Shown here: in pieces, positions 2,922 to 56,700 of the stretch | How positions within the stretch are numbered: position 1 is the first letter of the stretch | Layout of the letters: the number at the start of each line of letters is the position of its first letter | Assembly: GCA_000091205.1 (NCBI GenBank) | Contig: AP006502.2 | From: Cyanidioschyzon merolae | Lineage: Eukaryota | Strand: one strand, 5' to 3' | DNA length: 64,000 bases | The notes under the pieces: generated by a model | Seen by the model: only the letters and a program-made list of their open reading frames with translations | Told to the model about the DNA's origin: nothing | Database searches by the model: none | Made by a program: the position numbers and the translations under genes

Positions 2922-3319
2922 TCTATTGCGTTCACTCGGGTCGTCAACTCGGGAAACGGCGGCGGGAACGCGTCCTTGTGGCCTTCAAATAGAGATGGTG
3001 TTGCGGCTCGTCCCTGTTACCTGATTTCGCGAGTGCAACTTGTTGTTCCCTGTTCGGGCGGGTTTCGCCTTCGAAAGATAACAGGTCCAGTTGACGCGGC
3101 TCAGTTGAAATTAGTGGTATAAGTACTCGAAGCACGGCACAGAGTCGAACGCTGCTGCCGGCAGTGTACAGTAGTGGCGAGAAGCCCGCCCTAGACACAA
3201 AGTCACCGAGTGACGTGCAGGCGCCTGCCAGACTTTTTCGACCGGCCACCCACAACTGCTTCCAACTTTTTCTCATATAGTAAAACTTTCAGAATTGTCC
3301 ATCAAAGTTCCCTCTTGTT

Positions 3320-5480
3320 TAGTCTGGAGGTCTATTCTCCAGTACCGCACATCTCCTTACATTGATAGCGGCGTTCAAGTCTCGGTTCACAAACTCCACC
3401 TGTTTCGTGCCGTTAGGAGTTTACTCACTAATGCGAGTAGCCCACGCACTTTCGCTAGCCTTTCCATGTGCTCGTCTGTCAGCGGTCCGTACTTTGCTAT
3501 ATCCTCGGGGCTCCCCGGACACTTTTCCATCTAGACCCTCTGAAGTGTACACCGCAGTTCATGGTGTGTATACGATGTTCGAAACTCATCTACCGGGTTC
3601 GTAACGAAACGCCGTGCGCACTCCTTGTACACCCTCGTCGTTGGAGCTGGTGTACACCCTTTTTGGGTCTTCCATCGCCCTGCTCGGTATGCTACTACTA
3701 GCCTCTGATTTTCATCCTCCTTCAAGGCGCTCAACTCATTGAAAAAATTCGCGAACGCCCGCTGCTTTCCACAGTATAGATTCATACGCAAACGAGCCCA
3801 TCTGGGCATTGTATACTCCTCCCACAGCGCATCCCAATGCGCAACACGAACTTCCATGAATTTCCGAAAAGCTTTAAAGTCTGCTTCTCGGCTCGTCACC
3901 TCGCTCGTGGCTTCCAGGTGATCCTTCATTCCTGCATCCCATGCAGAAATTTTCTTCCATGCATTCATTATACCGGATTCTCGGTAGTATCTCGCTCTCG
4001 AGATTCTCAAAAGACGCATGTCTTTTTTGACGTACGTTGCCGTCAGTCCCATCTTCGGCACGCTTCGGTGCTGCAATGGTGATGATATTCGTATTCCCCG
4101 GGTCCGCGCCAACGACAAAGTTGTTATCATGCACTTTTTGGGTCGCAGGACCCGCCTTCTTCTTTTCTTCATCCTTCGTCCCGCCAACCATAAAGGCGTT
4201 ATCCTGCACCTCCTGCATCACAGGATCCGCCTTCTTCTCATCTTCATCCTCCGTCACGCCAACGACAAGGTCGTTATCCTCCGCCTCCTGCGTCGCAGGA
4301 CCAGCCTCCTCCTTTTCTTCATCCTCCGTCACGGGCGCAGCCGAGGGCGGAACTGGACGATCTTTCTTCAACCGCCGGTAGTGTACACACAAGGCTACCC
4401 CATCGGTTTCGATCATCCCAGTGAATACCTTTTGCTAGCTCACTTTGAGTCGTTTGAAATCGAAGATATTCTTCCAGTACGTCTCCCTATTCTCACCGGT
4501 GAACTCTCTTCTCCTTACATCGAACTCTGAACTGATCTCCTTCATGATGCCATGAAGGACGCCGGAGTCGATAGTCCCAACATGTGACTTGATGTTTCAT
4601 AATGGATCGACGTTGAAGCGCTTCCCCATTAGGACAGCCTTCCGTCTCTCCGACTCCTCATTTTTTCCTCACGCAGCTTCACCTCTGCCTTGCATTCGAG
4701 TTCACGGTCCAAAAACACGAAATAGCGCAGGATGAGGCGATAGAATCTTTCCTTATCTTTTTCAACTCGGATATCTTGTCTGTTGGATTGACCAGCCCCA
4801 AGATCGCACGGTGCTCTTGTATAGCCGCACGGGTCACAGAAGCTTCATTCCTGCTCCTGCGTGACGTCTTCTTGTAGACGAATCTGAGTTCCTGTTTATG
4901 ATGGCGATCTTTTGGGACGCCATCGATAATGGCCCATATCGCCCTGCGAGACAGGCCAGCCTAGAGTGCAAAGACGGAGCGTATCATGAAACGATCGAGC
5001 TTCATGGTCATATGGTTCTTCAAGTTCGTGATGTACTTCATCGCCCCGTAGGTTTAAATATTCGAGTCACCCCTGTGTCGAGCACCGTCAAAGCAGGATT
5101 TGGCGTAATTTTAGTGGAGTGCATGTGCTCGCTCATCTCTCCTCAACGTATACCCTGTGCTAGCCATCGGGTCACGATTAAAAGTCTTGTCGGAATGTTC
5201 GTATGGAACCTCGACTTCTATGATGCCCGTCGTGTCGCGATACATCTTCCTGGCCATATGCATCATTCCTCAAACAGCCTTTTGCAATACTCATTTAGTA
5301 ACACGCGACTCGGTTTTTGATGGCCTCTTGCAACTTTTCCTTGTATGCATCCTTGATATGGCGTGGAAGATAGGCTTTCGTTACCATTTTGTCGTACTGT
5401 CGTCTTTCTTGCAGCATTCGACGTGGGGCCTCCCCCTTTCGGTCCTTCTTCTTCTTTTCCTGGTCTTCTGGACTCGGCAC
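3320..5480 (-). mobile_element. Degenerate TnpB/Fanzor-like RuvC-nuclease element, copy A (frameshifted relic)
   Basis: On the minus strand, ORF 3874..4416 contains the RuvC-I-like motif [19 protein letters not shown] (GxDxG) near 4100. ORF 3531..4187, in another frame, ends with a TSQ-like VDEFRTSYTHHELRCTLQRV. A third frame at 3363-3400 encodes the RuvC-III motif FVNRDLNAAINVRR. A possible N-terminal remnant ORF lies at 5295..5480. The domain order is intact but three or more frameshifts and stops are present. Confidence 0.5.
4128..4330. repeat. 3 x ~75-bp tandem duplication inside copy A
   Basis: The nucleotide repeat ...cgcaggacc(a/c)gcc(t)tcttc(t)tttcttcatcct(t/c)cgtc(a/c)cgccaac(g/c)a(c/t)aaag(g/t)(c/t)gttatc... 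occurs three times. It translates on the minus strand to [25 protein letters not shown] / [25 protein letters not shown] / [18 protein letters not shown]. Confidence 0.8.
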
Positions 5481-5639: not shown

Positions 5640-7640
5640 GGTGTGAAACGCAATCGAACTGAAAGACTGTACTTTGCTATGACTCCAACGGAAATCCAAC
5701 TTCTACAGCTGAACAACACACTACTGATCAAGATCACGGTTCCCTTCAACGGCGGCATGTGCGTCGTGTCTCATGCCTGCCTGATATCCCAGGTGCGCTC
5801 ACTGACCGCGATGCATGCACCGCGCGAGACGCTAGACCCATCGATGAAGGACACGTGTCCGACACCCCGCATTGGCACATGCGTGCTCTCACCGGCGCTC
5901 TGCGGCACACGCGGCAGCGGGTAGTTTCAGAAAAAAGAGAAAGCGGACACTCCTCCGCGGATGATCTGAGCTTACAGACTTTCAGTTCTATTTCGTTTCG
6001 CCCCCGCTGCAGTGTATGTTAAGACGTCGAAATAACTGTGCAACTTACCGTATATATCGTTGGCAAATTGTCTGCAGGATATATTCATTACTGAACAGCT
6101 CATGGAGGACTGCGTTCATCCTTGAGGTCAGTCGCACAATAATACGCAGATGGTTGATGAACACTGCAAGTAACAAATATATGCGCACCGCACCAAAAAC
6201 TGGTATTCTCAGCGCATGCTTGCCGTCAATGGTAGAAAACGATCCGCTGATAACCTTACGGAAACTTAGTGCAACGAAAGTGGTCACAACGGGCGTCTCT
6301 GTTTCCCAACACCTTGTCCATACTGTCCTGAAAACACCGGGATACAGGCGCAAAAGAAGACTCTATTCATTCACGGCCATCCTCTGCCAAAATCGCAATG
6401 ACAGCATTCCGAGGACTGAGCGATCGGTATGAGGCACAGGGTCGTCGGGTTTGCTATTCCATTCGTTGAGACTTTCTTCGGACGAAACGGTCCGAGTATA
6501 TATGGGTATTCGCGGAGCGGGGCCCCCATCGTAAATAGGATCGAAATCGAAGAGAACGAGGACATCTTCATCAGTCTTAGCTGTAGTGGATTCATTTGAC
6601 GGCCTCAGTTTCGCTCCTGCGGAAGGCACATACAACAGAACCCTCTTCGCCGGATCATTGAAGACTTTTCTCAGACGTCTGGTGAGGTCCTTCGATTCCA
6701 CAACGTTGCATTTCACCATTACCCTTGCATTCGAGTTTTACCGAATCTTTCGGGATAGAGCTGCTTTCTATTCCCCCGTGCGCTCCTTGATTCAACCCCA
6801 TCGAGGCCGCGTTTTGTATCGTGAAACGTCATGGTCGCTCCACTGGGCAGATCTCCGACGAGTTCGCCGTACCGTGACACACCGGGGGCGCATTTCGTCT
6901 TTCTTCCACACGTCCTTCTCTGTCCAAGAAAATTCTCACCGTAGTGCATCATGAAGTGTGTTCGTTTTGAAGAAATACAATATCCAAGAGATGAGCTGGG
7001 GTGTACACTCCAGAACGTCGAGATGGAGAGAGGCCAGGGAAGCGCTTCGGCGATAGAAGAGCACGAAGAGCTGGCAGAGCAGCAAACGGCACAGAGAGAA
7101 CGTGTTCGAGGAATCTTTGCATTCATGCGTTCAACGAGAGGTAATAAACGCATGGAGTCCGTGAACCAAGACTTCAACGCCGTCATCCATATCAAACGAT
7201 GCGTGGTGCGGATGACGAGATGCGCGGACCTGACACGATCCATCTTTATGGGCCAGCCTCTCAGGCTCAACGTGTACAAAGAGAAATTGAAATCGATAGC
7301 AGGGGTCCGGTCGTTAAAGACTGGGAGGCATCTGCGCGTCGTTATTCATTTACCCTCCATAATTGTGAAACATTTTGTCTTTCACCGACTCTACAGAAGA
7401 CGGCAATGGACTTGGGCTTGTGTCCCCGAAACGATCGATTGCAGTGAAGCATGTGGCTCCGCTTTGCACCAAGGCGACATAGACTGATAGAAATATCTGG
7501 ATGAGTTCCCAATCTTTGGTTTTTTCGGGTTCTTATTGCATCATGGACGACATCGCGCACCGCAAATCCTCGATTCACTGGAAAAGTGAGCGCTTGCGTG
7601 TGCAGCTGACAACGCACTCGCATACGGGATTGTACAGAAG
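5640..7640 (+). mobile_element. Degenerate TnpB/Fanzor-like element, copy B (head-to-head with copy A)
   Basis: Plus strand carries the RuvC-I-like motif SSSVLAVVDSFDGLSFAPAEGTYN at about 6565-6630 (ORF 6586..6954). ORF 6951..7487 carries PRDELGCTLQNV, homologous to copy A's HHELRCTLQRV, and a degenerate RuvC-III VNQDFNAVIHIKR at about 7161-7200. Its tail ...FMGQPLRLNVYKEKLKSIAGVRS is homologous to copy G's ...FMGQPLRVEVYEEKLKSIPCNRS. A fragment of the family's conserved RuvC-II-like block lies at 7539-7630. Confidence 0.5.
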
Positions 7641-8197
7641 AAGCGCGCCATAGCACGGTGCGACACCGGCGAAGTAGATTGCATCTATCCCTCTGGACCC
7701 TTCAACGGCATACACCAAGCTATAAAGCAAGCGTTTTCGTGCTTCAGGGCGACACCGGTATTACGCAATGTGGTAGACGCATAGGCATATCTCACGAGAG
7801 TCAGGTGTCACGGTTGCGAGGCGCTCAGCGAGGCTGTGTACCTAGAACTTGAAACAGTCCTGCGAAGCGTAGGTCGCAACTCTCGCATCTGCATGGAATG
7901 CACCAACGACTGACAGAAGCGGCGAAATCGGGACCTGAACGCTTCTATCCATTTCCTTTCGACAACGAACAACGGAACTGGAGGCAAGGAATACCCCAAT
8001 ACATTTAAAAACGTAGATGAAACAGTGGAAAAAGAGACCAGTTGAAGAAAAAGCTCCCAATGACTGGTATTGATGATCGTAGGAAAACCCGTAAACACTG
8101 GAGTGTATGCCGCAGTCAGCAAAACGGACCCTTTCCAGGGTCGTCTGACATGACAGCATCTGGAGAATCCACGAATACGCAGCTGCAGCAGAGGCAA

Positions 8198-8222
8198 CGG
8201 CGGCGGCGGCGGCGGCGGCGGC
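8198..8222. repeat. (CGG)8 microsatellite
   Basis: cggcggcggcggcggcggcggcg, about 300 bp upstream of the FAD-synthetase ORF. Confidence 0.9.
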
Positions 8223-8528
8223 GCATCCACAATGCCCCGAGAAGCACCCCCGTCGCGATCCGTACGTTCACTGCACAGTGCTCCGCCTTACGACGCGTCA
8301 CTGGAAGCTCACGCGCAACTGCTGCTTTCGCTGGAACTAACGTGTACAGTGCGGCCTGGAGCGTGGCGGCGCTGAACGACCAGCAAACGATTTTTCAGGG
8401 AAACACCAACGCTTTGGCGAGTGCCAGGGTCAGGGGCGTCCAGCGTCGGATTTCTCGTGTGTGCCCTCTAACGGAAATTTGTTTGCGAGGACGAGACCGA
8501 GCACGGGCTCGGGTTCACGCCCTACCCA

Positions 8529-11599: not shown

Positions 11600-12720
11600 A
11601 GGCTGGATCGTGTCAGCGACTTGGGTCTCGTCTCCAGCACACCGCATATCGTGTGATATGGATGGCGGCGTTAAAGTCTCGGTTCACGAGATCCTTGCGC
11701 GCATTGATTCTGGTGGAACGCGCCAATGCTAGCATTGGTCGAACTCGTGCCCACAGTGCCACTTCAGTCTCGTCATCGCTCCGTCAGAGGCAGACACCCT
11801 TTCTGGTCAACTTCTCCTTTTTCTTCGTCTTCTTCTTCATCACTTGCTCTGCGTCGCTCAACAGTCGGCGAGAAGAGGATTTTTTCGATTTTCTTCGGCG
11901 GTTGGTGGTGACGGCTCTCCAGGATCCTCGACCTGCGTACCAATATCATTCAGTTGGAATTTTCGTTTCTTCAAATGAATGCACTTGTTTATGCCCCTAG
12001 GCGAGGTCCTTCCCGTATCGAAAAGCACTTGCTGAAGGAAGACGAAATGTGCCCCATCATGTGACAATGTGGAGGACGCTTCAGCGATTCGCCGAATAGA
12101 GCGATCCTTACTTTTCACGATAGAAAGCACTCCTTCGATTGTGCTGAATCACCGAAATGTACGGAGGAATGGGAAGCAGCTCTGGCCCTATAGAATCGGG
12201 AAACGCTAGAACGCAAGTGGAATGGTGAAATACCACAATATCCAACAGAAAGACGTCTTCAGACCTCAGAGGAAAGTCTTCAACGAATTGACAAAGAGGT
12301 TGGTGATGTTGTACGCGCCTTCTCTACGTGCGCAACTGAGGCTGCCAAGTGAATCCACTGCACCCAGAACAGACGATGATGTCCGAATTCTCTCCGAGTC
12401 CGATCGTACATACAACGCGTTCCTTCTCCGCGAAGATTCATAGACCCTCTGATCGTCTCGTCCGAGGCAATTCTCATCCATCTTAGAAACAAACAGACGT
12501 CCCTGCGTTCCATACCTATCGCAACGTTGCAGGAACGCTTTAGGTGCAATATCGGTGCAAGATGGCCGTGCTTGAAACTGGACTTTTTGCGACTGTATCC
12601 CAGAGGTTTCAGGACCATACGAACAAGCAGTTGAGAAACAGAGGCACCTGTGGTGGCTTCTATCGTCGCTTTTTGCTTTCCATAAGTTTATGGACAGGTC
12701 GACTTCTACCATCGACCGCA
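11600..12720 (-). mobile_element. Degenerate TnpB/Fanzor-like element, copy C
   Basis: Minus ORF 12266..12721 carries the RuvC-I-like motif SERIRTSSSVLGAVDSLGSLSCARREGAYNITNLFVNSLKTFL, homologous to copy B. The minus strand at about 11645-11700 encodes ARKDLVNRDFNAAIHITRYAVCWRR (RuvC-III). An N-terminal remnant may extend to about 13400. Confidence 0.45.
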
Positions 12721-14421: not shown

Positions 14422-15633
14422 TCATGGATACAAGTTGTGCTCGACATGATTTGCGGCCTCGCAGCAAAGTGCACGTTGGATGCGCACTAGCGCCGCCCTG
14501 GACCAATCGAAGCTCGCCAGGAACAGCGTTGAAGAGGGCATCTTGTACAAAATGCGGAGCCATGTGCCAGCCCATAGCGTCATCGGACCCTCCTCGCGAG
14601 CGATCTGGTAAATGGCCTGCCAGACGCCAGCATACTCGCCGTAGGGCCGGGCCATGAGGCGTGTACGTGCGATGTCCATCGGCATCGTGCAGATCGCCGC
14701 AACGGTGCCGGCTACGCTTCCGGTCCAGACAGGTTTGCGTCCATTACCCAAAGCATCCGCGGTCGCTATATGATGCCCATCACCGGTCTTGGAGTCCGCG
14801 TGCATGCGTCGCTGCACGAAAAACTCATTGAGCGACTCGTAGACAACAAAGAGAGACACTGCGAACGGTACGTCTCGGGCAACTTGAGCCCAAAACCCGC
14901 GATAGAGACCTCCGCGATGCAGAGGCTGTCTCGCCAACGCTCGCAATGCCGATATCGCGTTTTGATGCTGTCCAGTTTGGACTTGCTGTTTGATGACCTC
15001 TGGCGGAACGCGAACCAATGAGGCGACTGTATCCGCCAACGCAGCGGCAATCGCAATACGAACGATCGTCCTCGGTGTTGATCGCCGCACAACATCGGGA
15101 GTCGGCTCTGCAACGTGCATCATGGATTTCAGCGCTTCGTAGGTGGCCATGTAGACGGCCTGGGCGGGTGCGTTTCCGATGACCGCCACCGGGAGGCCGC
15201 GCCAGAAACCCAGTACCCCATGTCGATTGACTATGCTGCGTGCAACGAATACGAGACGACGGTGCCATGGTAACCCCCGAAGCTGTGCCATCGTGGCGCT
15301 CTGCATGTTTGTTTTGATGGTGTCCAGCGGAATGAGTACCGTTCGTGTCACGAAAGCCGCCATGACCCCCGCGGCAAAGTTCACCCACGCTGGAGCGCTC
15401 TCCGCAACTCGTGCACGCTGCACGTCGTGCACATCGTGAGCATTACGGTGCCTTACACTGCACAAGTCTACGGCTGTTCTCATCGAGCTTCGATACCTTT
15501 TCTCAATGGAGACTTGGTGTTCTCGCACCAACAGACCAGGGTGCGCGGCTGCGCGCTCGTAGCCTCGGCAAGCACGCGTCGATAACGCGGGGCTCGATGC
15601 GAACGGCAACCACTCCATTTTCCAAATGCCCAA
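14422..15633 (-). CDS. Mitochondrial carrier family (SLC25) protein, S-adenosylmethionine-carrier-like
   Basis: Three carrier repeats are present: PLDTIKTNMQS, PPEVIKQQVQTG and PMDIARTRLMARP. The PxEV[IV]KQ form of repeat 2 is characteristic of SAM carriers. Six hydrophobic helices are present. The true start is probably an internal Met downstream of 15633. Confidence 0.7.
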   Translation of the reverse strand: MGIWKMEWLPFASSPALSTRACRGYERAAAHPGLLVREHQVSIEKRYRSSMRTAVDLCSVRHRNAHDVHDVQRARVAESAPAWVNFAAGVMAAFVTRTVLIPLDTIKTNMQSATMAQLRGLPWHRRLVFVARSIVNRHGVLGFWRGLPVAVIGNAPAQAVYMATYEALKSMMHVAEPTPDVVRRSTPRTIVRIAIAAALADTVASLVRVPPEVIKQQVQTGQHQNAISALRALARQPLHRGGLYRGFWAQVARDVPFAVSLFVVYESLNEFFVQRRMHADSKTGDGHHIATADALGNGRKPVWTGSVAGTVAAICTMPMDIARTRLMARPYGEYAGVWQAIYQIAREEGPMTLWAGTWLRILYKMPSSTLFLASFDWSRAALVRIQRALCCEAANHVEHNLYP

Positions 15634-15870: not shown

Positions 15871-15873
<3 letters not shown>

Positions 15874-15905
<32 letters not shown>

Positions 15906-15913
15906 ACAGCAGT
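15874..15913. repeat. (CAG)n/(CAA) triplet repeat
   Basis: cagcagcagcagcagcagcagcaacagcagcaacagcag, located in a GC-rich spacer full of overlapping spurious ORFs. Confidence 0.85.
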
Positions 15914-16199
15914 AGCGGTGGTAAACGTTGCACGGCGCGATGCGCCCCTGGTTACCCACATCGCTGCGTATGTCATGCTTCATTTCGTGTCTCATAGCGG
16001 ATGCTACGGCCGTGTTCGATTCGAATGCGACGATGAACGATTCGCGCTGATCCTGTCGTTCGCTCATTTTCCGAACTATTTTAGATGTTCAGCCTCGACA
16101 TGCAAGGTGCAGCAGTCAGAGCGTACGGCTAGGCGCCTTGTATAAGGATACTCGGTCGTCGTTCGGGGTAGCTCCTTTGGATCAATGCCGGTTGGATTC

Positions 16200-17330
16200 G
16201 GTACGTCACTGGTATCCATGTGATTCGCAAAGACATTGAACGAGGGTTCGCCAAACTAGCCGATATGATTATCCGATAAATATGCCCAAGCCTCCATGAT
16301 TCTCCTTTTGTCATATGCAGCGTGCTGAATCCACGCATGCTTCAAGTCTTCGACCGTTGTGTTTCGAAGAAATTCGCAGGGCGCAGCAGCTGGCGCCGCT
16401 GGATTGACGACGTAAAATACAACTGCAGGTCGTCTGCTAGCGACTTTTCCATAAGCTCACACCCGAAAGTTCACGGAACCGTTCCCGTCAAATCATCGAT
16501 ACTGATCCACGGACGAGGCCTCCTCTGTTTGTGGCCGTAAATAACATGTCAGTCTACAACAAGCTGATACCTCGAACGAAATATGCTCCCAGAGGCTCCC
16601 GTCTCTCCTGTTACGATGGCAATGGATTTTGAGCTCGGACTTGCGTCATTGGAGCAATCGCGTTGAGCGGAAAGTGCGTCACCGCTTTGCACAAAAGGAG
16701 CCTATACGCATCGAAATTGCCGGACTTGTTCTCGAGACAGGATTTTCCTTCCAGTACTTGCTTCATCATGGACAACATGGCTTCTTCGGATCCTCTGTAG
16801 AATGGAACACGTTGGGCATAATTCTACAGCAGACAGCGTGCTCGCCGAGGGCATCACCCAGAAGAATCATGTTATGGTCGGATATTGTAAAGTGCGTGGA
16901 AACGGAGGAGAGCATTTCGGAGAGCCTCCTGTGTCAGTCAGGGGCATCTGCCGAGCGATAAAGCAAGCGTTCACGCGCCACCCGTCGACGCTGGAATTAG
17001 AAGATGTGATGGACATATGGAAACGCTTGACCACAGTCACCTGTGACCACTGCAAAGCGTGTACCGAGGCGGAATATTAAGAAGATAGACATGTCGAGCG
17101 AGGCTTCGGTCGCAACTTCCGCCTTTGCACGAAATTCATCGACAACGTCCGAAAGTAGTGAAATCAGAGCGTTCACACCGCCGCCAGCTCCCTGCAAATG
17201 CTGACGACGGATCTAAAGAAACAGTAGAAACAGGCGCATTCGTAGCCAGAGATCACAAGGACCTAAAGGAAGCAGTCGAAGAAAAAGCTTACAACGGCTG
17301 ATGTTGATAACAATGTTAAGAGAACCAGTG
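16200..17330 (+). mobile_element. Degenerate TnpB/Fanzor-like element, copy D (subfamily 2)
   Basis: ORF 16629..16961 (RHRFAQK..GFSFQYLLHH..EESISESL..ER*) is homologous at nucleotide and protein level to copy E. ORF 16802..17080 ends ...ELEDVMDIWKRLTTVTCDHCKACTEAEY, a TSQ-like motif followed by CxxC. A degenerate RuvC-III ADVDNNVKR lies at about 17300. Multiple frames are involved. Confidence 0.45.
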
Positions 17331-17466
17331 TTTCATGTGTATGCCCAAGTCAGGTAAGTTGAGCCTTTCCATTTGCTATCGACATTTCGCGTTGCCACTG
17401 GATGCATACGCATACGCGGCGCTGTGCAGGTGCCCAACACCGCAGGAGAACTCGAAACGCCGCCCG

Positions 17467-18095
17467 CATCCAATCGATTTGGGGAAAGCGCCGGCCAATA
17501 TAAAAGACTGCATAATTCAAGAAAAAGCATCCAATCGATTCGGGGAGCAACGACGGCCAATGTAAAAGACTGCATAATTCAAGAAAAAGCATCCAATCGA
17601 TTCGGGGAGCAACGCCGGGCAATATAAAAGACTGCATAATTCAAGAAAAAGCATCCAATCGATTCGGGGAGCAACGACGGCCAATGTAAAAGACTGCATA
17701 ATTCAAGAAAAAGCATCCAATCGATTCGGGGAGCAACGCCGGCCAATATAAAAGACTGCATAATAAAAGACTGCATAATAAAAGACTGCATAATTCAAGA
17801 AAAAGCATCCAATCGATTCGGGGTGCAACGCCGGGCAATGTAAAAGACTGCATAATTCAAGAAAAAGCATCCAATCGATTCGGGGTGCAACGCCGGGCAA
17901 TGTAAAAGACTGCATAATTCAAGAAAAAGCATCCAATCGATTCGGGGTGCAACGACGGCCAATGTAAAAGACTGCATAATAAAAGACTGCATAATTCAAG
18001 AAAAAGCATCCAATCGATTCGGGGTGCAACGCCGGGCAATGTAAAAGACTGCATAATTCAAGAAAAAGCATCCAATCGATTCGGGGTGCAACGCG
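17467..18095. repeat. 62-bp minisatellite, ~10 tandem units
   Basis: The unit is catccaatcgattcgggg(a/t)gcaacg(a/c)cgg(c/g)caat(g/a)taaaagactgcataattcaagaaaaag. Two units carry extra 15-bp taaaagactgcataa sub-repeats. Unit variants alternate. The array produces a ladder of spurious MQSF... minus-strand ORFs. Confidence 0.95.
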
Positions 18096-18195
18096 CACGG
18101 GCACCTCATACACAGATCCGCCGCCAGCGATTGATGCCGAGGCGCGTCTTCCGATCCTAGTCAACAGGCTTCCAGGGCTACGCGCTCTGCTACGA

Positions 18196-19395
18196 GTGCT
18201 TTCTCCCTGGGCGGAGCAGAGGTCTTTGTGTGAGCCATTCACGGGAGTAATGGCCCCTGTCCCCCGACCTGGACCGCTGTCGCCGAGTTCTCGGGGGAAG
18301 ACGAACGCTGCGGGTGAGGAGTGCTCACTGAGTGGCAGCTGCGGACCCGAAGCCTGCACACGTCGGCGAGACGATCGCGTTGCAAAACCGGGACTCTCCG
18401 TTTCTTGTCGCTGGTCTGTTTCCACTAGTCCTGGATCAGCGAGCAAAGTCATAGAGGTGGTCGGAGACCGCGCTCAGGCCACCGTGTTGACGAAAGAGTC
18501 TCGAAGCGTACTCGGAGGCAGCCCGAGTAGTGGACGGCTCTTGCCGTGCCTCGGCTCCGGCAACGGGGTGCCAGGCCAGAGCACGGCGCTGCCGAAAGGC
18601 GCTCCTGCTCGTGGCGCTGGGCGCGAACACCTGGAGCAATCTTTCCTTGACTTTGGGCAGCGGAACGGTGCGGGACCGGTGACTTGCCCCGAGTGCGGAT
18701 GTACATATGTGGTAGGTGTTGCCGCAGACGAACGCGCGCATACCAGCGAACATCAACTGTTCCTTTATGGGGTTCCAGTGACGCACCCTCGCTTCCTCGA
18801 CGCTGCGGTCGATTTGGGCAAAGCCCCTGAGCAGCAGTGGCCCGCGTTTGAGCGCATCCCGGGATGGATTGTGCACGTCAGTACGAGCAGAGGCAGAGCA
18901 AGCGCTGCGCAACACCAAAACAGATCAGGAAATATCCTGCACGTCCAACAGCCATGGTTTAAGACGCTCTGGAGATTGGCCTGTAAGGATTGGAGTGCTC
19001 ATGCGGAAGCATCGGAGCCTACGATACCTTTTGGTACGGAGCTTTCAGAAGCGGTTCCACCAATCTGGATCTTTGTCTATATTGGCAGACAGCGCCGCAA
19101 TGCCATCGGACTTGTCGTCGCGCGTGCCCTGACGCTACGGGAGCCATTAGACCATGTGCGGCAGGAGGCACCCTGGTGTGGACTCGAGCGTGTCTGGGTC
19201 CACACTGCATATCGTCGATGCGGGGTGGCAACCGCTCTCGCGGACACAGCACGAGCACATGTCTGGGCTGCAACAGTGGTTCCGCGCCATCGCTGCGCGT
19301 TCACGGAACTGACTACCGCCGGTGATGCATTTGCAGCTGGGTACGTCGGTGGTCGGGATCGAATTCGGTTGTACAAACCTACAAAGCACATATAG
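18196..19395 (+). CDS. ESCO/Eco1-type N-acetyltransferase (cohesin acetyltransferase)
   Basis: Zinc finger CPECGCTYVVGVAADERAHTSEHQ (zf-C2H2_3 of Eco1). The C-terminal acetyltransferase region is IWIFVYIGRQRRNAIGLVVARALT...RVWVHTAYRRCGVATALAD. The N-terminus is low-complexity. Confidence 0.65.
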   Translation: MLSPWAEQRSLCEPFTGVMAPVPRPGPLSPSSRGKTNAAGEECSLSGSCGPEACTRRRDDRVAKPGLSVSCRWSVSTSPGSASKVIEVVGDRAQATVLTKESRSVLGGSPSSGRLLPCLGSGNGVPGQSTALPKGAPARGAGREHLEQSFLDFGQRNGAGPVTCPECGCTYVVGVAADERAHTSEHQLFLYGVPVTHPRFLDAAVDLGKAPEQQWPAFERIPGWIVHVSTSRGRASAAQHQNRSGNILHVQQPWFKTLWRLACKDWSAHAEASEPTIPFGTELSEAVPPIWIFVYIGRQRRNAIGLVVARALTLREPLDHVRQEAPWCGLERVWVHTAYRRCGVATALADTARAHVWAATVVPRHRCAFTELTTAGDAFAAGYVGGRDRIRLYKPTKHI

Positions 19396-20188
19396 TTTCC
19401 AAGGGCGATATGTGTTGCTACCTTTATCGAGGACGGCTTCTTCTCCGTTTGATGATTTTGTAGAGCGTGCGCGGGGGTCAATGGATGGTGCTATTTTCAG
19501 ATGCTGCGCTCCTGCAGTTCAGGTCGAGTTTCAGTATCGAGGGACAAGGGGTGCAGTGGAGGCGTCCCGGCATCAAGCGAGCCCTGGTTAGCGCGTGGGA
19601 GTCAATGTCCCAGGACGGCGTTCCGTGACGTGTCGCGCGGGTATCCACGGTGATCCTCAGAGATACTCGGCGAAAAAGGTAAAGTGGCGAAATAAAGCCT
19701 CGTTCCTATCGCCGTCATAGAGAGTGATTCAGAGCATGCTCTGGGTGTTTTCTGTGTGCAATGGACCCAGGGTAACCTTCATGAATGGGGAAAAGCGGCG
19801 CGCGGACCTGGGCCGCACATGCCGATGCAACGCTCGTCTTCGACGCCTCTTGAGTCGCTGCGTAAGGCACTCTAGTGATCTGACTGAGTGCATGACAGAT
19901 GCATAAAAAATCTTCAAACAATTCAGTGAAAGATATGATGCGGCGTGAAACGCGAGCCTCACAGGTATCGAGCCGTACTTAGCTGCCGTTCATGATCCCA
20001 GCATCACGAGCAACATCCAGAGACACGCGGGAATCCCCCATTGGGCCTTGCACGCTTCCGAAGTAGGACGATGCAGGGTATCCCATTGTACAGCCATCAA
20101 ATCTTACAGCACTAGACGAGCGGGGTAATCACGCTCCGAGTACTCATCCTTGTCCGCCTTCACGAGAACAATGCCGCTCGATAGCAGT

Positions 20189-21931
20189 TCAACTAGTCAC
20201 TGCATCCTGGCCCTGATCCGCATCATCGGATATATCGAGGCCATCAAGCAACTCATCGAGACTCACACTGGGATAGTCGTCAGACTGGTCTGCATCCGTG
20301 TCTGCTTCAAGCACCGCATACGCATTCATTCCACGCTGTCCGTCGAAACGATTCGCATTCTGAACATTTCGTCGACTCTGACCTTGTGCTCGTTCAGATG
20401 CAGTCCACTTCCGATCCCCAGGATAGCGAATCCCAAGTCGTCCGAGACCATCCTCCACAAACTTGGTGGGATCTTTGTACAGATTCACCGTCGCTCGAAG
20501 CTCCGGATCCTGTTCCAGCTCCTGCATAAACTCCTCACGATCGCGCTCCAGAGCGACATCGCGCTGGTCCCGTTGTCGCCCAGTGACGCGAGCGCCTTCT
20601 CGCAAGGCATGCCGATGCTCACCAACATCGCCATCATCTTTGGGAAGCTCGCGCAAAGTCCATATCCGCTGCTTGGTGCGATCCCTCTGGGGATAACCTC
20701 GCTTCACGAGAACGATTTCCGGCAGTGTCGCTTTCAACGAATCGCTTTGCAGGGATTCGAACAAGTCGCTCTCATTCAAATTGGCCGAAACTAGATCGTA
20801 ACCGAGCACAAGGTCACCCGCCTTGAGAATGTTTCCAAGGTGTGTGCGAACCAAAAACTGTTGATCATTCACACCCAGGTCTGCAGCACGAGCAACCGTT
20901 GCGTCTGCAAGGCGAAATCGCTGGTCCAGGTGCCCGCAGCTAGTCGCCGCTGGATCCCGCTCCACAGGTTCCACATCGAGCACCACAAACGCTGTGAGGC
21001 GACGCGCATTCATCAATGCTGTTAAGCCGAGGCGCCAGTAGGTGGCCCCGTCGATATGGTGCTCAAACCCAGTGAGCGGATCAAGCAGACGAATCTGGTT
21101 CGTGATCCGATGCACGAGCAGGAGGCTGGAGAGTCCACCCAGTTGCGTCGCAACTCGTGGTGGCAGATACACCAGATCCTCGCGGCAAATTGGTGGTATT
21201 TCCGCTGAAAACGTATACTTGTATCGATACACGTTGTTGCTGGGGTCATGCGACACCAGATGATTGCTCTGACGTTGACGAACACAGGCAACGTTATGCA
21301 GAAAGCTCAGGAATTTGAGCGCGTGTGAACGATGAACAAAGTAAAAGTCGAGTCCATCCTTCTGCTGTCGAATGCCTAAAACATCCTCGTGAGCGTTGTG
21401 CTTCAGAATCAACTGCTCAAGATAGAAGAGCGTTCGCTTGTGGTCTACGCGCTGTCGGAGCTGGACGACGGCTTCCCAAGCCTCGATTTTCGCAGCTTCC
21501 CGTTTACAGTCCGCGCACTGCTGGAGTTCCACTACGAACTCAACGATAAACGATTGTTCGAGAATGGTGCGGTTCAGGACTTCGTCCTGTACGGTTAAGC
21601 GAAGTCGGATGCGCCGCGAGTGCGGCTCCGTCCATACAAAAGCCGCATCGACAAGGTGCAGCTTCACAAGCCGCTTCAGTCGCTTTAGACAGATCGTCAT
21701 CAACTCCTTTGATTCAAGATCCGCACGGACCCAAGTTTTCGGTGGAACAAGGTAGCGACCACAGAACTTGCAGTACACCAGCGCACACTGCTTCGGGAAG
21801 CCCTGCGTAAGGTCTACCTGACTCCGCAAACAGTGTACGCACATGTTGCTCGGGTTGGCGGTAATTGGCGCCCCGCAGAGACAACATAGAATCGTGACTG
21901 TCGATTGGTCCTGAACTGAAGTCGTACCCAT
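20189..21931 (-). CDS. NMD3: 60S ribosomal subunit export adaptor NMD3
   Basis: MGTTSVQDQSTVTILCCLCGAPITANPSNMCVHCLRSQVDLTQG...ALVYCKFCGRYL matches the NMD3 N-terminal Cys4 clusters, and the protein is collinear with NMD3 throughout. The start is set at the internal Met at 21931. The longest ORF extends to 22036. Confidence 0.85.
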   Translation of the reverse strand: MGTTSVQDQSTVTILCCLCGAPITANPSNMCVHCLRSQVDLTQGFPKQCALVYCKFCGRYLVPPKTWVRADLESKELMTICLKRLKRLVKLHLVDAAFVWTEPHSRRIRLRLTVQDEVLNRTILEQSFIVEFVVELQQCADCKREAAKIEAWEAVVQLRQRVDHKRTLFYLEQLILKHNAHEDVLGIRQQKDGLDFYFVHRSHALKFLSFLHNVACVRQRQSNHLVSHDPSNNVYRYKYTFSAEIPPICREDLVYLPPRVATQLGGLSSLLLVHRITNQIRLLDPLTGFEHHIDGATYWRLGLTALMNARRLTAFVVLDVEPVERDPAATSCGHLDQRFRLADATVARAADLGVNDQQFLVRTHLGNILKAGDLVLGYDLVSANLNESDLFESLQSDSLKATLPEIVLVKRGYPQRDRTKQRIWTLRELPKDDGDVGEHRHALREGARVTGRQRDQRDVALERDREEFMQELEQDPELRATVNLYKDPTKFVEDGLGRLGIRYPGDRKWTASERAQGQSRRNVQNANRFDGQRGMNAYAVLEADTDADQSDDYPSVSLDELLDGLDISDDADQGQDAVTS

Positions 21932-22227
21932 GGTACGCGACAAGTTCCAACGACCACGAAAGTCGTCGAACAAAGTCAGAGCAAGCGCCTGGAACGACTT
22001 GGCTGCTCCACGTCGCCACAGGCGCCTGCAGGGCAACGCGTTGCGCTGCTGTTAACGCGCTCCTGTTCGGCCAGCCGGTGTCTTCTCCAGCGAACGCGTC
22101 CGAAAGAGGTTTCACAGGGGGGAGCGATTGGTTCTCGTGACCTCTAGTCTCCTATTGAGCAAACAACATAACAGCGCTGGCCGGAAGCTGTTTGGGTCAC
22201 AAGGGATCTGGCCTCTTGATAAGACAA

Positions 22228-22340
22228 GCTACGCGCGGGAACCTTTTGGGAAGCGTTTGGTTATCAAGGGAACGGACCTCTACGTAAATAAGCTGCGCAC
22301 GGGAACCTTTTGAGAAGTGTTTATTCTGCAAGGGAACTGG
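22228..22340. repeat. Imperfect ~45-bp direct repeat x2 in the NMD3/SWIB bidirectional promoter
   Basis: gctacgcgcgggaaccttttgggaagcgtttggttatcaagggaacgg and gctgcgcacgggaaccttttgagaagtgtttattctgcaagggaactgg, about 62 bp apart, between the divergent gene starts at 21931 (-) and 22363 (+). Confidence 0.8.
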
Positions 22341-24958: not shown

Positions 24959-25380
24959 CAGCGACGAGGTCTTTCGAACCTCCGCGTCTCCAAGCGGGTC
25001 ACACGAATTCGTACACGCGCTGGCACTGTGAAGGCAGACAGACTGCAGTCTGCAGTGCGCGATGCGCTGACGCGCGACGCAGGACGAGCGTGCCGGCGCG
25101 CAGTATGGAGCGGTACCTGAAACTGCCTCTTTATGGACATTGCGAACGTCATTCGAGACAGCGCTCTGTGTTTCGATGCTTTCTGTTGTCCATGTCGATC
25201 GTTGACCATGAGAGCATGTGGTTTGTTCGGTATCCCATTAAGCTCTACATAGGTGCATGCATGCGAACACGGAGGCGTGGCAAGCAATCTTTTCGCGAAG
25301 CATCTCATGAGGTGCACACACTGAAACACACGGAGCAGTGATCGAGCATATTCGATCAACGGATCGATGATGCACACAAA

Positions 25381-28399: not shown

Positions 28400-29400
28400 A
28401 CCATCACCGGAATCGAGGTGATTCGCAGCGCCAGCGATCGGTGATTCGTTAAATAACCGATACCATCACCGGGCTCATACGTACACGCCCTCATGCTCCT
28501 CGTTTCCTTGCGTGCAGTGTGCTCAAATCAAGCATTTTTCTAGATTTCGATCTTTCAGTTTTAAGGCAGCTCGTGGGTTCAGCAACTGATGTCGCCTCAT
28601 GAACGTTGAACAAACCTGACGTCATCCCTTGACGAGTTCCGCACGGACTCATGCCGAAACTTCGCTGAACTTTTCATGTGAAATAATCGATTCCGTTCGA
28701 GCGACAAGTCCTCCTCTCTTGTGGAAATCTATGAAACGGCATTCAGCGCAAGCATGGAACCCTTCACGGGATATGCTCCCAGGGGTGACCGTCTCTTCTA
28801 TTTGCGAGGCAATGGTTTCGAACTCTGACTTTAATCATCACGGAGATCGCTCGCAAAGGAGAACGCGTCATCGGTTCGCTGGAAAGAAGCGCTCACGGAT
28901 CGGAATATCTCGACTTGATCTTCAGCATGGATTTTGCTTCCGGTACTTGCTCCATCATCGACAATATCGCGTTCCACAAATCGTCTATCGAATAGAACAG
29001 TGTGCGCTTGCGTGTGCAGTGGACAGCGCACTCTCTGAGAAGATCATTCCGAAAAGCCCGCGATCACAGGATGCAGAATCGGGCGCGGAAACGAAGGAGA
29101 GCATACAGGAAAGCCTCCCGTACCCGTCAATAGCATGTACTGAGCGATGAACGACGCGTTCTCGAAGAATAGCGCAGCGCTCCAACGAGGAACTGTGGTG
29201 GACATGTACGAACACCTGACCACTACAAAGTATCACCGCGGCGAGGGACGCATTTGGGCTGTATCCAGAGAAGACCAACCTGGCGAGCGAAGTTTACACC
29301 ACAATGCCTGCCTGTGCATAAAATGCGGTGACAACAGCCGAATGCAGCGAAATCTGGACTTGAACGCAGCCATTAACGTCGTTTGACCGCTGACAATGAA
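28400..29400 (+). mobile_element. Degenerate TnpB/Fanzor-like element, copy E (subfamily 2)
   Basis: ORF 28629..29150 is homologous to copies D and F. The conserved block at 28954-29038 reads SIIDNIAFHKSSIE, which is RuvC-II-like, and contains an in-frame stop. ORF 29147..29386 reads TVVDMYEHLTTTKYH (TSQ-like) ... CLCIKCG (CxxC) ... RNLDLNAAINVV (RuvC-III at about 29351-29383). At least one frameshift lies between the parts. Confidence 0.5.
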
Positions 29401-42701: not shown

Positions 42702-44128
42702 TTTGGTCAGCGACCCTGCATGAGAGTCACACTGCTGCGAAGGGTGTTCTTTTTTGGACGAATATTTCCTCTGTTCTGTGGGTTCGGATGCGACGAGCGA
42801 GCTAATCAAGCACGCGATCGACGTACCGCATGCGAACAAAATGAACTGTTTCTTCATCGGGATGTAGTATACCGGAGAGCGCAAGTTTCTGTATTGGTGG
42901 TATCCTTCATACCGATGAGAGCATCGCCACCAGGGCGCCATTTGGGGCATCTGGATGATGCAAGGCTTCCAGGGTCGTTCCGAATTGCACGTGACTTTCC
43001 CATGGACTTGATGTCCGGAGCACGGTTTTAGCGCAATGTCCTGCACACGCTGGCAGCTGAGCTTCAACGTATCGATCCGGTATTGCAAGCAGGCCCAGTC
43101 GCAGAAAGCACGCCAAGGCTGGAACCGCTGCGCATGGAGCTATTCGCACCCTCTAACCGCTTCCCTCCAGGTATGATGCAGCCATTGGTACGAGGTCTTT
43201 CCAGGAACATTTCGCAGAAAGGCCCGGTCAACCGCATCACACGTGCCGGCCGCTCAGACGCGCGCGGGTACCTTCGCAGGCAATTTTGTCCCAGTTTGCA
43301 AGTCGCCAGCACAAGTGACCCCAAAGACAGCAGCTTCCCTATACTCGCTGTCACAGTGGCTTCTCCATGGTAAAACCCGTGGTTTGGCACGCAAGTTCCT
43401 CGGTAGCAGAGCATCTCAGTCTTTGAAAGCGGGTCTATCGCCGCGTTTGCAGTACGATCGCAACCACAAGAGCATCCAACGCAACACGCAAAAATCAGAA
43501 CGCTCGAAGCGATCCCACAACTCGAGCACGCACCTGCAGCTGCACCATGCCGAATCTGGACAGTGCTCGCATACCTGCACGCACAGAGCTGATACTGCAA
43601 TCCCGCCTTAAATTGACCCTATCTAACCGTTCGAGCTGAACCGAGTATGAGCTGTCCATAGGGAGCACGCATGCCGACACGTGTACGTCCTGGGCAGCAG
43701 CACAGATTTTTTCATTGACAAAACATTTACTTTGGCCAGCGTTCTCCGATTATGCGCATTTTTCTTTTATTTCTTCATGTTTTTTTTTCAGTGCGCGGTG
43801 AAGTATCCATCAAACACCCTGCCTCCAAGTTATATGACCCATACTTCTTCTCGGATATTCTGGTCGTTTCATACGTCCTATCGTGTGTGCCTAGTGCCTG
43901 CCGAAGGCGACAGAACGGCTTTTCTGTACCACACAGAGGGCGTCGGCTCAAGGGGCAGCACCGATGCATGCGCGCCCGGCGCGCGCGGCTCGACGAGCAC
44001 CGCCGAATCGCTCGGATGCCGTCTCCTGGACGCTTTCGCGGCAGGGCGACGCGTGTCAAGTGCGCAGCGTTCTGTGCGCGCGTTGCGACAAGCGCTTCAA
44101 GCGCTGATCAGAGAGCTCGCTTAGAAGC

Positions 44129-54153: not shown

Positions 54154-54999
54154 GGCCTAGCGTTTGTGGAGGCCTGCAACGCACCCTGGACAATCACAGG
54201 CGCTTGGAAGCACGCCGCGACTAGCAGACAACACACGCCGATGCAGCGTTCTGGTCGAAGCTGGTTGAAGCGGGGCGTGCTCTGGGCCAGTGAGTGTACT
54301 TCGCTGCTGCCGCTGCTGCTAGAGGTTCGGGTGCTCCATTCCCCACCGAAGCGCTTGTCCTGAACGCGAATTCCCATGCAAACCTCGCAGCGTGAAGCAC
54401 AGTGGCTATAATAGCTTGTGGTTGGGTGCTTTCGCGTCGAAGGGCGCGTTCCGGGCGACCGCTGAGGTCTGTCGAAAAGGACACCAGCCCGTGGATGCCT
54501 GACAAAGAAGCGCTGCATCTATGCTCTGAATAGGGTTTCTGGTGTCCCCGAACGCTATAATGGTTGTCTCGCTGTTGTTCGTGTCATAGACAAAACGGCG
54601 AATACTGTGGATGCTGGTTGTGAGGTACAGGTCGTGACGCCTGCACGAGCGCGCGACGCTTCCTTACGATACCCGCTGTCTGGTTCCGAGCGCTCTGCAA
54701 CTGGCTATGGCGACTGTACCACGCTACCCACGGTTCCGTGCGATACCGGGTGTCTGATGCCAAGCGCTCTGCAACAGGCGATACGGCTGCTGCAACGGGC
54801 GCGAGACGGCAATGTCAGATGAGAAAGGAACGCTGAACTGCTCGAATAGTTCCTTCATTGCGATTGGTAACGCAGCTCCTATTAGGTTTACAGCCACGAG
54901 ATTCGAGGAATAGCTGTAAGGACATACGGATTCGTACTTAGGTTAAGGATTCTCGTTGGTTTCTCCGAGGTCGCTCATTCCAATCTATCCGTTGGAATT

Positions 55000-55700
55000 C
55001 GTTTCGTCACCGGAATCAAGGTGATTCGCGATGCCCACGAACAAGACTCCCTACAATAATGTGTTTTTTACTAAATTTGTACGTTGAAGCCTCCGCTCCT
55101 CTCAGCTCCTTTCGGATAGAACGCTCAGATGACGCATTTTTCAAGTGTTTGATCGTTCTGTTCAGCGGCAACTCGTAGGCACAGCCATGCGCACCACCGG
55201 AATGATGATGAAAGAAATCGATGTCGTTTCTTCTCGACTTGTTCACGAGTTCATGTTGAAAGTTCACTGAAAACGTCATCTCAAATCATCCATTCCGCTC
55301 AGAAGAGAAATCCTCCTCTGTGTCAATCGCCGAAACTACTTGCGACAGCTCAATGATAACTCGCACAAGATACGCCGAAAGCGGATTCCGCCTCCTCTCT
55401 TTGCACGGGAAAGCATTCCGGAGACGTACATTAGTCATCGCAGCGATTGCTTCTGGAGTAGTGAGCGTGATCACCTTGTATGAAGGGCGCGTAAACGGAT
55501 CGACCGTTCTCGACTCGACCTCTAGCCGGCATTTTTCTTACCATTCTTGTTCTATCGTGGATAACATTTCGTTCCACAAATCCTCTATCGAATTGGACGG
55601 CGTGCGCTTGCTCGTGCATCGGTCAGAACACTCGATGCAGAGAGCCCTGGAGAAGCCCGAGATCGTCACAGATCGACAATGAGTGCGAAAAATAAACAAA
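55000..55700 (+). mobile_element. Degenerate TnpB/Fanzor-like element, copy F (subfamily 2, 5' part)
   Basis: The 5' sequence caccggaatcaaggtgattcgc is shared with copy E (caccggaatcgaggtgattcgc). ORF 55320..55682 ends with the conserved RuvC-II-like block SIVDNISFHKSSIELDGVRLLVHRSEH at about 55552-55640. Confidence 0.45.
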
Positions 55701-56149
55701 ACACACTGAGAGAAGCTCTGTACACCCCGCCGGCGCTTCTATCAAGCGATGGGGCAAGCGTTGACGGGCTCTCACGTGGCCCTCCACAGATGACGTCTAT
55801 TGGGCAAATAGGAACACCTGCGCAAAATCAAGGAGCGTGGGTGCGAAACGCGCATCGAGACTTGATATAAAAGTAAAAAACGTTGCAAGCGAAGCCCAGA
55901 TTGCAGCTTTTGGCAGTGCATCGAATGCGTCGACACCAGCCGAAAGCAGCAAAATCGGGCCCTGAACGCGACTTTCAAAATCCTTCAACTGCGAACATCG
56001 GGAATAGAGTGAAACTAGAGACCAGCGTATACACAGACGGATATGAGAGAGCGGAAACGGAAGTAGTTGAGGAAAAACGCTCCGGAAAGCCACTCTTCAT
56101 GACCTTGGAAACAGACCCAACATTTTGAGTCTACATCCGAGGTCGGTGC

Positions 56150-56700
56150 GCGGATCGACCCATGCCTCGCTCCGCTTCCATTTCATTCATCGATTCTGCG
56201 ATTACGACGATAGCGTGTATGTCGATAAACCGACCTGCAGACGCTTCGCAACCTGTTTTGACCGGTTGCATGGTATCGATTTCAGCTTCTCCTCGTAGAC
56301 TTCGACCCGGAGAGGCTGCCCCATGAAGTTTGCTCGCGCCATCTCCGCAGGTGTCGTCCTCTGCTCCGTAAAACGTCTGATATTTATTGCAGCATTGACG
56401 TCTCGATTCACGAACTCCATGCGTTTTTTTGCATCTGGTCGAACTCACCTATGCAAGGATAGCGGAAACTCGCGCCACCTGTCTCGTCTTCGTCCTGATG
56501 ACGACGTACTTTTCTCACCTATGTTTGCTCTTCTTCTTAGATCCATGGTCGGCGAGAAGAGGATTATTTCCGTTACTTCTTCCAGCCGACGACACCGAGC
56601 CTCCAGACTCCTCTACCTAGATGTCCATCACTTTCCTGTTTTAATTCCAAAACGAACCCACGTGGAGCGCTTCTGTTATAAACCGCTAAAAAGCACTTGA
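56150..56700 (-). mobile_element. Degenerate TnpB/Fanzor-like element, copy G (3' part, tail-to-tail with copy F)
   Basis: Minus ORF 56202..56420 reads MEFVNRDVNAAINIRRFTEQRTTPAEMARANFMGQPLRVEVYEEKLKSIPCNRS, a RuvC-III motif plus a C-terminal tail homologous to copy B. An in-frame stop lies immediately upstream of this frame, and the Zn-finger region is in another frame. Confidence 0.5.

Follow-up and report, generated by a model that had tools for sequence, protein, structure and literature searches.

A single-locus minisatellite of variable unit number upstream of the ESCO gene of Cyanidioschyzon merolae, adjacent to a degraded Fanzor-like element

The carrier–ESCO interval and the anatomy of the array

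In Cyanidioschyzon merolae 10D, on a chromosome of 1,621,617 bp, a tandem array with a 62-bp period sits between a mitochondrial-carrier gene and an ESCO gene, within the 64-kb stretch of DNA analysed here (the window; Table 1). The carrier and ESCO proteins have consecutive accessions, so the 2.6-kb spacer between the two genes holds no annotated gene. It does hold a (GCA)n microsatellite (15873–15916), which ranges from 35 to 68 bp among environmental haplotypes, and a degraded Fanzor1/TnpB-like remnant, copy D. The downstream gene had been called ESCO in a first-pass annotation of the DNA, an identity borne out by the two Pfam domains and the protein match listed in Table 1. The distances given in that annotation need correction on both sides of the array. 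On the right, the annotated ATG, which aligns with the start of the Cyanidiococcus orthologue, lies 156 bp from the array end; the distance of ~100 bp proposed earlier fits the first in-frame GTG, at 18196. On the left, the array had been placed about 140 bp after the RuvC-III motif of copy D; the position aligned with RuvC-III (KFIDNVRK, 17132–17155) maps about 310 bp upstream of the array, and the stop codon of the remnant reading frame lies 165 bp upstream, on the same strand.

Table 1. Features of the carrier–ESCO interval, its gene neighbours and the Fanzor-like remnants, in window coordinates.
Feature	Position	Strand	Basis
Mitochondrial carrier CDS (BAM83182), divergent upstream neighbour	14422–15618	−	Pfam; protein look-up
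Degraded Fanzor1/TnpB-like remnant, copy D; coding remnant to stop at 17299–17301, homology with copy B on to about 17372	16081–17372	+	
Locus-specific spacer between element remnant and array; identical in all alleles	17373–17465		Copy B flank alignment no better than shuffles; left-flank identity
Minisatellite; nine complete units of 61/62 bp plus a partial one of 26 bp, with three additional copies of a 15-bp sub-repeat	17466–18093		TRF; core matches; unit dissection
Unit 1, 61-bp a-type (GATTTGGGGAAAGCG); leads every allele recovered	17466–17526		Dissection; allele comparison
Units 2–5, b-type (GGGGAGCAACG); two alternating variants giving a 124-bp higher-order period	17527–17804		Dissection; variant-unit codes
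Three tandem copies of the 15-bp sub-repeat in unit 5	17749–17793		TRF; dissection
Units 6–9, c-type (GGGGTGCAACG); seen in strain 10D only	17805–18067		Dissection; allele comparison
Sub-repeat of 15 bp, twice in tandem within unit 8	17965–17994		TRF; dissection
Partial tenth unit, joined to the unique right flank	18068–18093		Dissection; allele comparison
Probable ESCO mRNA 5′-end cluster	18156–18216	+	Starts of twelve independent contigs (contig ends only)
ESCO/Eco1-type acetyltransferase CDS (BAM83183, 381 aa)	18250–19395	+	Pfam zf-C2H2_3 and Acetyltransf_13; protein identical to BAM83183
NMD3 (BAM83184)		−	Pfam; protein look-up
SWIB (BAM83185)		+	Pfam; protein look-up
Fanzor-like remnants, one subfamily	3300–4416, 6945–7484, 11616–11783, 56134–56448	−, +, −, −	
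Fanzor-like remnants, other subfamily	7345–8074, 16081–17372, 28404–29386, 54882–56125	+, +, +, +	

Tandem Repeats Finder (TRF) places the start of the array at 17466, with 94–98% matches between units and scores of 390–548. When the array is cut at a conserved core, GCATCCAATCGATTYGGGG, it resolves into nine full units, which measure 61, 62, 62, 62, 92, 62, 62, 77 and 62 bp in order, followed by a partial tenth (9.4 units in all). The core occurs 10 times across 17466–18086 and is absent from shuffled sequence. Adjacent units abut head to tail without unique spacers, and differ by single-base variants and by the presence of extra copies of a 15-bp sub-repeat, TAAAAGACTGCATAA. There are three such extra copies, two in the 92-bp unit 5 and one in the 77-bp unit 8, which TRF reports as nested arrays at 17748–17794 and 17965–17995. 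The sub-repeat has TAA at both ends, offering microhomology for slippage. Every unit contains an 8-bp perfect palindrome with a ClaI core, AATCGATT, housed within the near-palindrome CCAATCGATTCGG.

This anatomy agrees with the first-pass description in (i) the presence of about ten near-identical units of ~62 bp, (ii) the occasional 15-bp sub-repeat insertions, and (iii) the near-palindrome with an ATCGAT core in each unit. The alternation of two unit variants, which had been described for the array as a whole, holds for units 2–5, where unit 4 repeats unit 2 exactly and unit 5 departs from unit 3 by one base. It does not extend to units 6–9, which are of a third type (GGGGTGCAAC; units 6, 7 and 9 identical, unit 8 different), nor to unit 1, which is of a distinct 61-bp type. 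A coding repeat was considered and rejected, as stop-to-stop open segments in the array reach at most about 70 codons in every frame. As RNA or single-stranded DNA, the unit and its dimer are predicted to fold no better than their shuffles (z = +1.7 and +0.6), with a minimum free energy for the unit that is weaker than that of the shuffles. Searches of the array against Rfam gave no significant match, and a search for tRNAs gave none.

One locus, many arrangements

Public assemblies were entered by three independent routes: a scan of metagenome contigs with a 24-nt invariant core, the recovery of contigs through flanking proteins (those of the ESCO cluster and a 92-aa open reading frame of copy D), and a search with a peptide encoded purely by the array. 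All contigs recovered by the three routes represent the same locus, at about 99% identity. The array is therefore single-locus in the 64-kb window and in the environmental assemblies of these near-identical populations. Its left and right junctions are identical in all recovered alleles, and the interiors differ. The flanks are close to those of 10D, with 2–8 differing sites over the adjacent 1 kb on each side (0.2–0.8%; 99.2–99.8% identical).

Alleles were compared by coding each unit through its variant positions. At least seven distinct complete arrangements are found in the environment, with 3.4 units (two arrangements), 4.4 units (two) or 6.4 units (three, one of them a single base from another), against 9.4 in 10D, these copy numbers being lower bounds in short-read assemblies, where de Bruijn assemblers can collapse loops. 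Incomplete contigs add one arrangement of at least 4.7 units and one of at least 5.8. Strain 10D alone has c-type units and sub-repeat expansions. The array as a whole ranges from 209 to 628 bp across alleles, and copy number does vary across strains, a point raised in the first-pass annotation. Seven contigs break within the array, as expected of an unresolvable or heterogeneous repeat, and the array accounts for many short-read assemblies of C. merolae breaking here. One allele, A1, recurs on four different (GCA)n tract lengths, which could reflect assembly collapse. The differing unit-type neighbourhoods cannot arise from collapse and are a robust feature of the alleles. Some units are mosaics (for example, those coded CaCCG and TaACG) that mix features of two unit types, and thereby carry the signature of unequal exchange or conversion.

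The order of the carrier, ESCO, NMD3 and SWIB genes is kept in Cyanidiococcus yangmingshanensis (contig L005) and in a third lineage (contig L006), with carrier–ESCO spacers of 630 bp and 1835 bp, respectively. Searches of these two spacers detected no array and no unit-like sequence. By this comparison the array is specific to the C. merolae lineage, and the element insertion is probably likewise specific to it. The equivalent intergenic region of the third lineage has an unrelated tandem repeat of its own upstream of the ESCO orthologue (9166–9315 of L006; two copies of 75 bp, 96% matches).

The neighbouring Fanzor-like remnants and the origin of the array

The window contains at least eight degraded Fanzor1/TnpB-like remnants belonging to two diverged subfamilies, some of them nested or abutting. 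A dispersed family in the window has about 65–72% DNA identity. In the case of copy C (28404–29386), the sequence reads VVDMYEHLTTTKY...CLCIKCGDNSRMQRNLDLNAAINVV*, in which a zinc finger stands between a glutamate like that of RuvC-II and an aspartate like that of RuvC-III. Copy D (16081–17301) is collinear with copy C yet degenerate (VMDIWKRLTTVTCDHCKAC...CTKFIDNVRK...VEEKAYNG*). The second subfamily (A-type) bears an NRDLNAAINV motif and another stretch of 16 residues. A stitched copy of this second subfamily has a sole match among 177,635 PDB sequences, the Fanzor1 of Spizellomyces punctatus (8GKH); despite its weakness (E = 0.35), the match keeps collinearity across RuvC-II and RuvC-III. 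Pfam and NCBIfam searches with the remnant open reading frames gave nothing significant, the best match being a Cas12f1-like TNB domain (E = 0.13, 11 residues). A Fanzor1 family, CMe-1A, is on record in C. merolae, with some 150 copies that are each about 3 kb long, share about 80% identity with the consensus and are devoid of terminal inverted repeats (Bao & Jurka 2013, PMC3627910). The motifs of copy C, the PDB match and the published family together make the TnpB-like label, which copy D had received in the first-pass annotation, a sound one.

The D-type subfamily seems to persist only as wrecks. A profile search for further copies with four D-type C-terminal halves returned just short reading-frame fragments of known copies and an environmental contig, L021. 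Remnant density in the window is far above that reported for CMe-1A, which has ~150 copies in 16.5 Mb. The environmental contigs L021–L023 are 84% identical to the element-rich segment 4342–8215, against ~99% for the rest of the locus, and represent either a paralogous segment or a more divergent lineage. Within the coding remnant of Fanzor-like copy A, a 75-bp sequence is repeated three times (4107–4333, 80% matches), corresponding to an acidic 25-residue repeat just upstream of RuvC-I. D-type copy B is followed, about 125 bp past its stop codon, by a (CGG)8.7 tract (8198–8223); this loose parallel to the array 3′ of copy D is probably coincidence.

The proximity of the array to copy D invites the idea that it derives from the Fanzor1-like element, either as an amplified 3′ end or omega-RNA region, or as a satellite seeded by that sequence; the first-pass annotation had entertained both. 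The array begins 165 bp after the copy D stop on the same strand, and copies D and B stay homologous for about 70 bp past it (the alignment scores 30, shuffles average 16.7 and none of 500 reaches 30), so that the element reaches towards the array. The unit junction (CAAGAAAAAGCATCCAA) also weakly resembles the final codons of copy B (E = 3) and copy D (E = 76). Against this, the homology ends near 17372, about 90 bp short of the array: the spacer plus unit 1 aligns with the copy B flank at chance level, with 137 of 500 and 277 of 500 shuffles scoring as high or higher. A lead from MAFFT, in which unit 1 was homologous to the 3′ flank of copy B (GCATCCACAATGCC...), was rejected by the same comparison of local alignments with shuffles. 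No unit-like sequence accompanies the four other D-type remnants (B, C, E1 and the L021 version) or the A-type remnants of the window, so the unit does not co-occur with these other element copies, a check that the first-pass annotation had proposed. Elsewhere in the window, the core at up to three mismatches has a single match, with three mismatches, at 44001. When a profile built from the unit dimer was run on the two related-species loci and on the window with the array masked, the best hit had E = 1.3. About 150 Fanzor1 copies are reported in C. merolae (PMC3627910), yet all unit-bearing contigs recovered come from one locus. The published description of CMe-1A, with which the array was compared, mentions no terminal tandem repeats. 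Copy D does belong to a dispersed TnpB/Fanzor-like family of C. merolae, with the array just 3′ of it, but the array lies past the detectable homology, and neither the further copies examined nor any other recovered contig has its unit. The unit also has no predicted structure of its own.

Descent of the array from the element is accordingly very improbable. A Fanzor/TnpB terminus or omega-RNA region was rejected because the unit is missing from the 3′ ends of other copies, has no stable fold and has no Rfam match; a transposable element or MITE was rejected because there is a single locus and no inverted repeats were found around the array. Still further from plausibility, and almost certainly wrong, are the proposals that the array samples a genome-wide or centromeric satellite, or that it is a CRISPR-like array tied to the TnpB-like nuclease. 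The kilobase containing the array is the most AT-rich of the window (GC 0.46) and the array adjoins a TnpB homologue, which speaks for them. However, the locus is single and has unique flanks in all assemblies, and the arrays measure merely 0.2–0.6 kb, on which grounds a dispersed or centromeric satellite was rejected; the genome-wide satellite considered in the first-pass annotation is likewise at odds with a unit found only at this locus in the window and the recovered environmental contigs. The CRISPR-like alternative fails on the head-to-tail abutment of units, which leaves no unique spacers and only single-base variants as differences, and on the adjacent nuclease gene, which is a dead remnant. 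Most probably, then, the array is neither the end of an element nor one of its guide-RNA (omega RNA) regions, nor does it represent a dispersed satellite, and its adjacency to the dead copy D would be coincidental.

Position relative to ESCO transcription and a probable explanation

Twelve contigs from at least 11 samples begin in a cluster between the array and the ESCO ATG (Table 1). At these ESCO-end starts, one contig has an Illumina adapter fused at 18215, two are self-chimeras of the template-switch type, and four are joined to foreign sequence. The opposite ends of these contigs fall either at 22007–22016, where the NMD3 ATG is about 80 nt downstream, or at 24976–25021, just upstream of the next minus-strand gene. 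Artefact-bearing ends at ESCO, combined with other ends at the 5′ ends of neighbouring genes, fit a transcript origin for the contigs, and the clusters probably mark mRNA 5′ ends in transcript-derived assemblies; a search of these presumed transcript-derived contigs for poly(A) tails or another direct RNA signature found none. This suggests that ESCO mRNAs start 34–94 nt before the ATG, 63–123 bp 3′ of the array. A further contig, L020 (~17980–22016), starts within the array although its other end falls in the NMD3 5′ cluster; should this contig derive from RNA, transcription would in some cases begin inside the array.

A placement this close to the inferred start sites would put the array in the proximal promoter, and repetition of the unit by itself makes it dense in motifs: CCAAT occurs 15 times (against 1.2 per kb elsewhere), the AATCGATT palindrome 10 times and TGCATAA 12 times, and three units carry the consensus TATAAAAG. 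The array could on this basis be a copy-number-dependent cis-regulatory module, in which CCAAT, the CCAATCGATT palindrome and TATA-like motifs would be sites for NF-Y or similar factors, and ESCO would be transcribed at a level set by unit number; array variation would then be maintained by selection or drift on expression. A protein-binding array had been among the possibilities named in the first-pass annotation. The near-invariance of the palindrome-bearing half of each unit in all alleles is consistent with such a role. However, partial invariance in a young repeat reflects recent common descent rather than constraint, and the TATA-like motifs are at least 100 bp from the probable transcription starts. 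Upstream of ESCO, the two related species have no unit-like motif, and near the gene each has just one lone CCAAT or ATTGG, which argues that no conserved element was amplified; a motif look-up in these orthologous promoters (CCAAT, ATCGAT, TATA, E2F-like and MSA-like) found nothing in common with the unit. A dedicated regulatory module is on balance unlikely. The more ambitious proposal is less likely again, namely that the array acts as an evolvable ‘tuning knob’ for the cohesin acetyltransferase ESCO/Eco1, with unit number setting the count of CCAAT and palindrome sites upstream of the promoter and natural populations carrying expression alleles. Position and motif content do make a regulatory side effect on ESCO possible, to which the sequence comparison with related species lends no support.

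The explanation that best accommodates these observations, and a probable one, is that a hypervariable minisatellite (VNTR) occupies this one locus, in non-coding DNA a short way upstream of the ESCO promoter, made and reshaped by slippage and unequal exchange, lacking a sequence-specific function and lying beside copy D by coincidence. It has the hallmarks of the class, with a 62-bp head-to-tail unit, unique flanks and allelic variation. The array would probably have originated from a segment of 61 bp that had an imperfect direct repeat of 26 bp at its two ends, represented today by the start of unit 1 and the terminal partial unit, and unit 1 is probably the ancestral copy. Replication slippage, together with unequal or gene-conversion-type exchange between units, would then have expanded and reshuffled the array, and smaller slippage events at the TAA microhomology would have produced the 15-bp sub-repeat expansions. 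It is most likely that the array has no sequence-specific function of its own. Any phenotype would be expected to act via altered spacing or altered CCAAT-box content of the ESCO upstream region.

Classical hypervariable minisatellites include human MS32 and the INS VNTR upstream of the insulin gene. The C. merolae array resembles them in its unit of tens of base pairs (10–100 bp in the class) arranged head to tail at one locus with unique flanks, in its gene-proximal upstream position, and in alleles that vary in unit number and in the interspersion of variant units, with mosaic units pointing to unequal exchange or conversion. It differs in being short (3–10 units) and in occurring in a haploid-dominant unicellular red alga with a compact, repeat-poor genome, and its polymorphism is known from environmental assemblies rather than pedigrees. 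It is not known to have a G-rich strand bias or to be tied to a hotspot of recombination. Other parallels in compact genomes of microbial eukaryotes are the unstable tandem repeats in yeast promoters (Vinces et al., 2009, reportedly) and the 27-bp repeats of the Toxoplasma SAG1 promoter (Soldati and Boothroyd, 1995, reportedly), both of which are said to have an experimentally demonstrated effect on transcription. These systems share with the C. merolae array a tandem repeat of variable copy number within a few hundred base pairs upstream of the transcription start, whose position in C. merolae is a probable one. In contrast with them, an effect of the C. merolae array on transcription would be hypothetical, and the orthologous promoters have no conserved motif.

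Literature searches for this C. merolae VNTR or its polymorphism found no description. The array sequence itself has been public since completion of the 10D genome, and minisatellites are a well-known kind of repeat. C. merolae is a model alga valued for its minimal, nearly repeat-free genome, and its sexual cycle has now been described. A hypervariable locus offers a simple marker, accessible by PCR or long reads, with which strains and natural populations can be distinguished and crosses tracked. The assignment also corrects the attractive but mistaken linking of a repeat array to a TnpB/Fanzor nuclease. Were the regulatory reading true, the locus would make the evolvability of promoter repeats tractable on a core S-phase cohesion gene, and a repeat-poor, genetically tractable 16-Mb genome would provide a clean test of promoter-VNTR evolvability outside yeast and humans.

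Two features concern the genes downstream. In the convergent ESCO/NMD3 intergenic region, contig L026 is without about 40 bp found in 10D near 20092–20133, through either a polymorphic indel or an error of assembly. Between the divergent NMD3 and SWIB genes, a 64-bp sequence is tandemly duplicated (22226–22337, two copies, 81% identical). This duplication served, like the (GCA)n tract, as a comparator for the array, and its length is constant in all ten environmental contigs that cover it.
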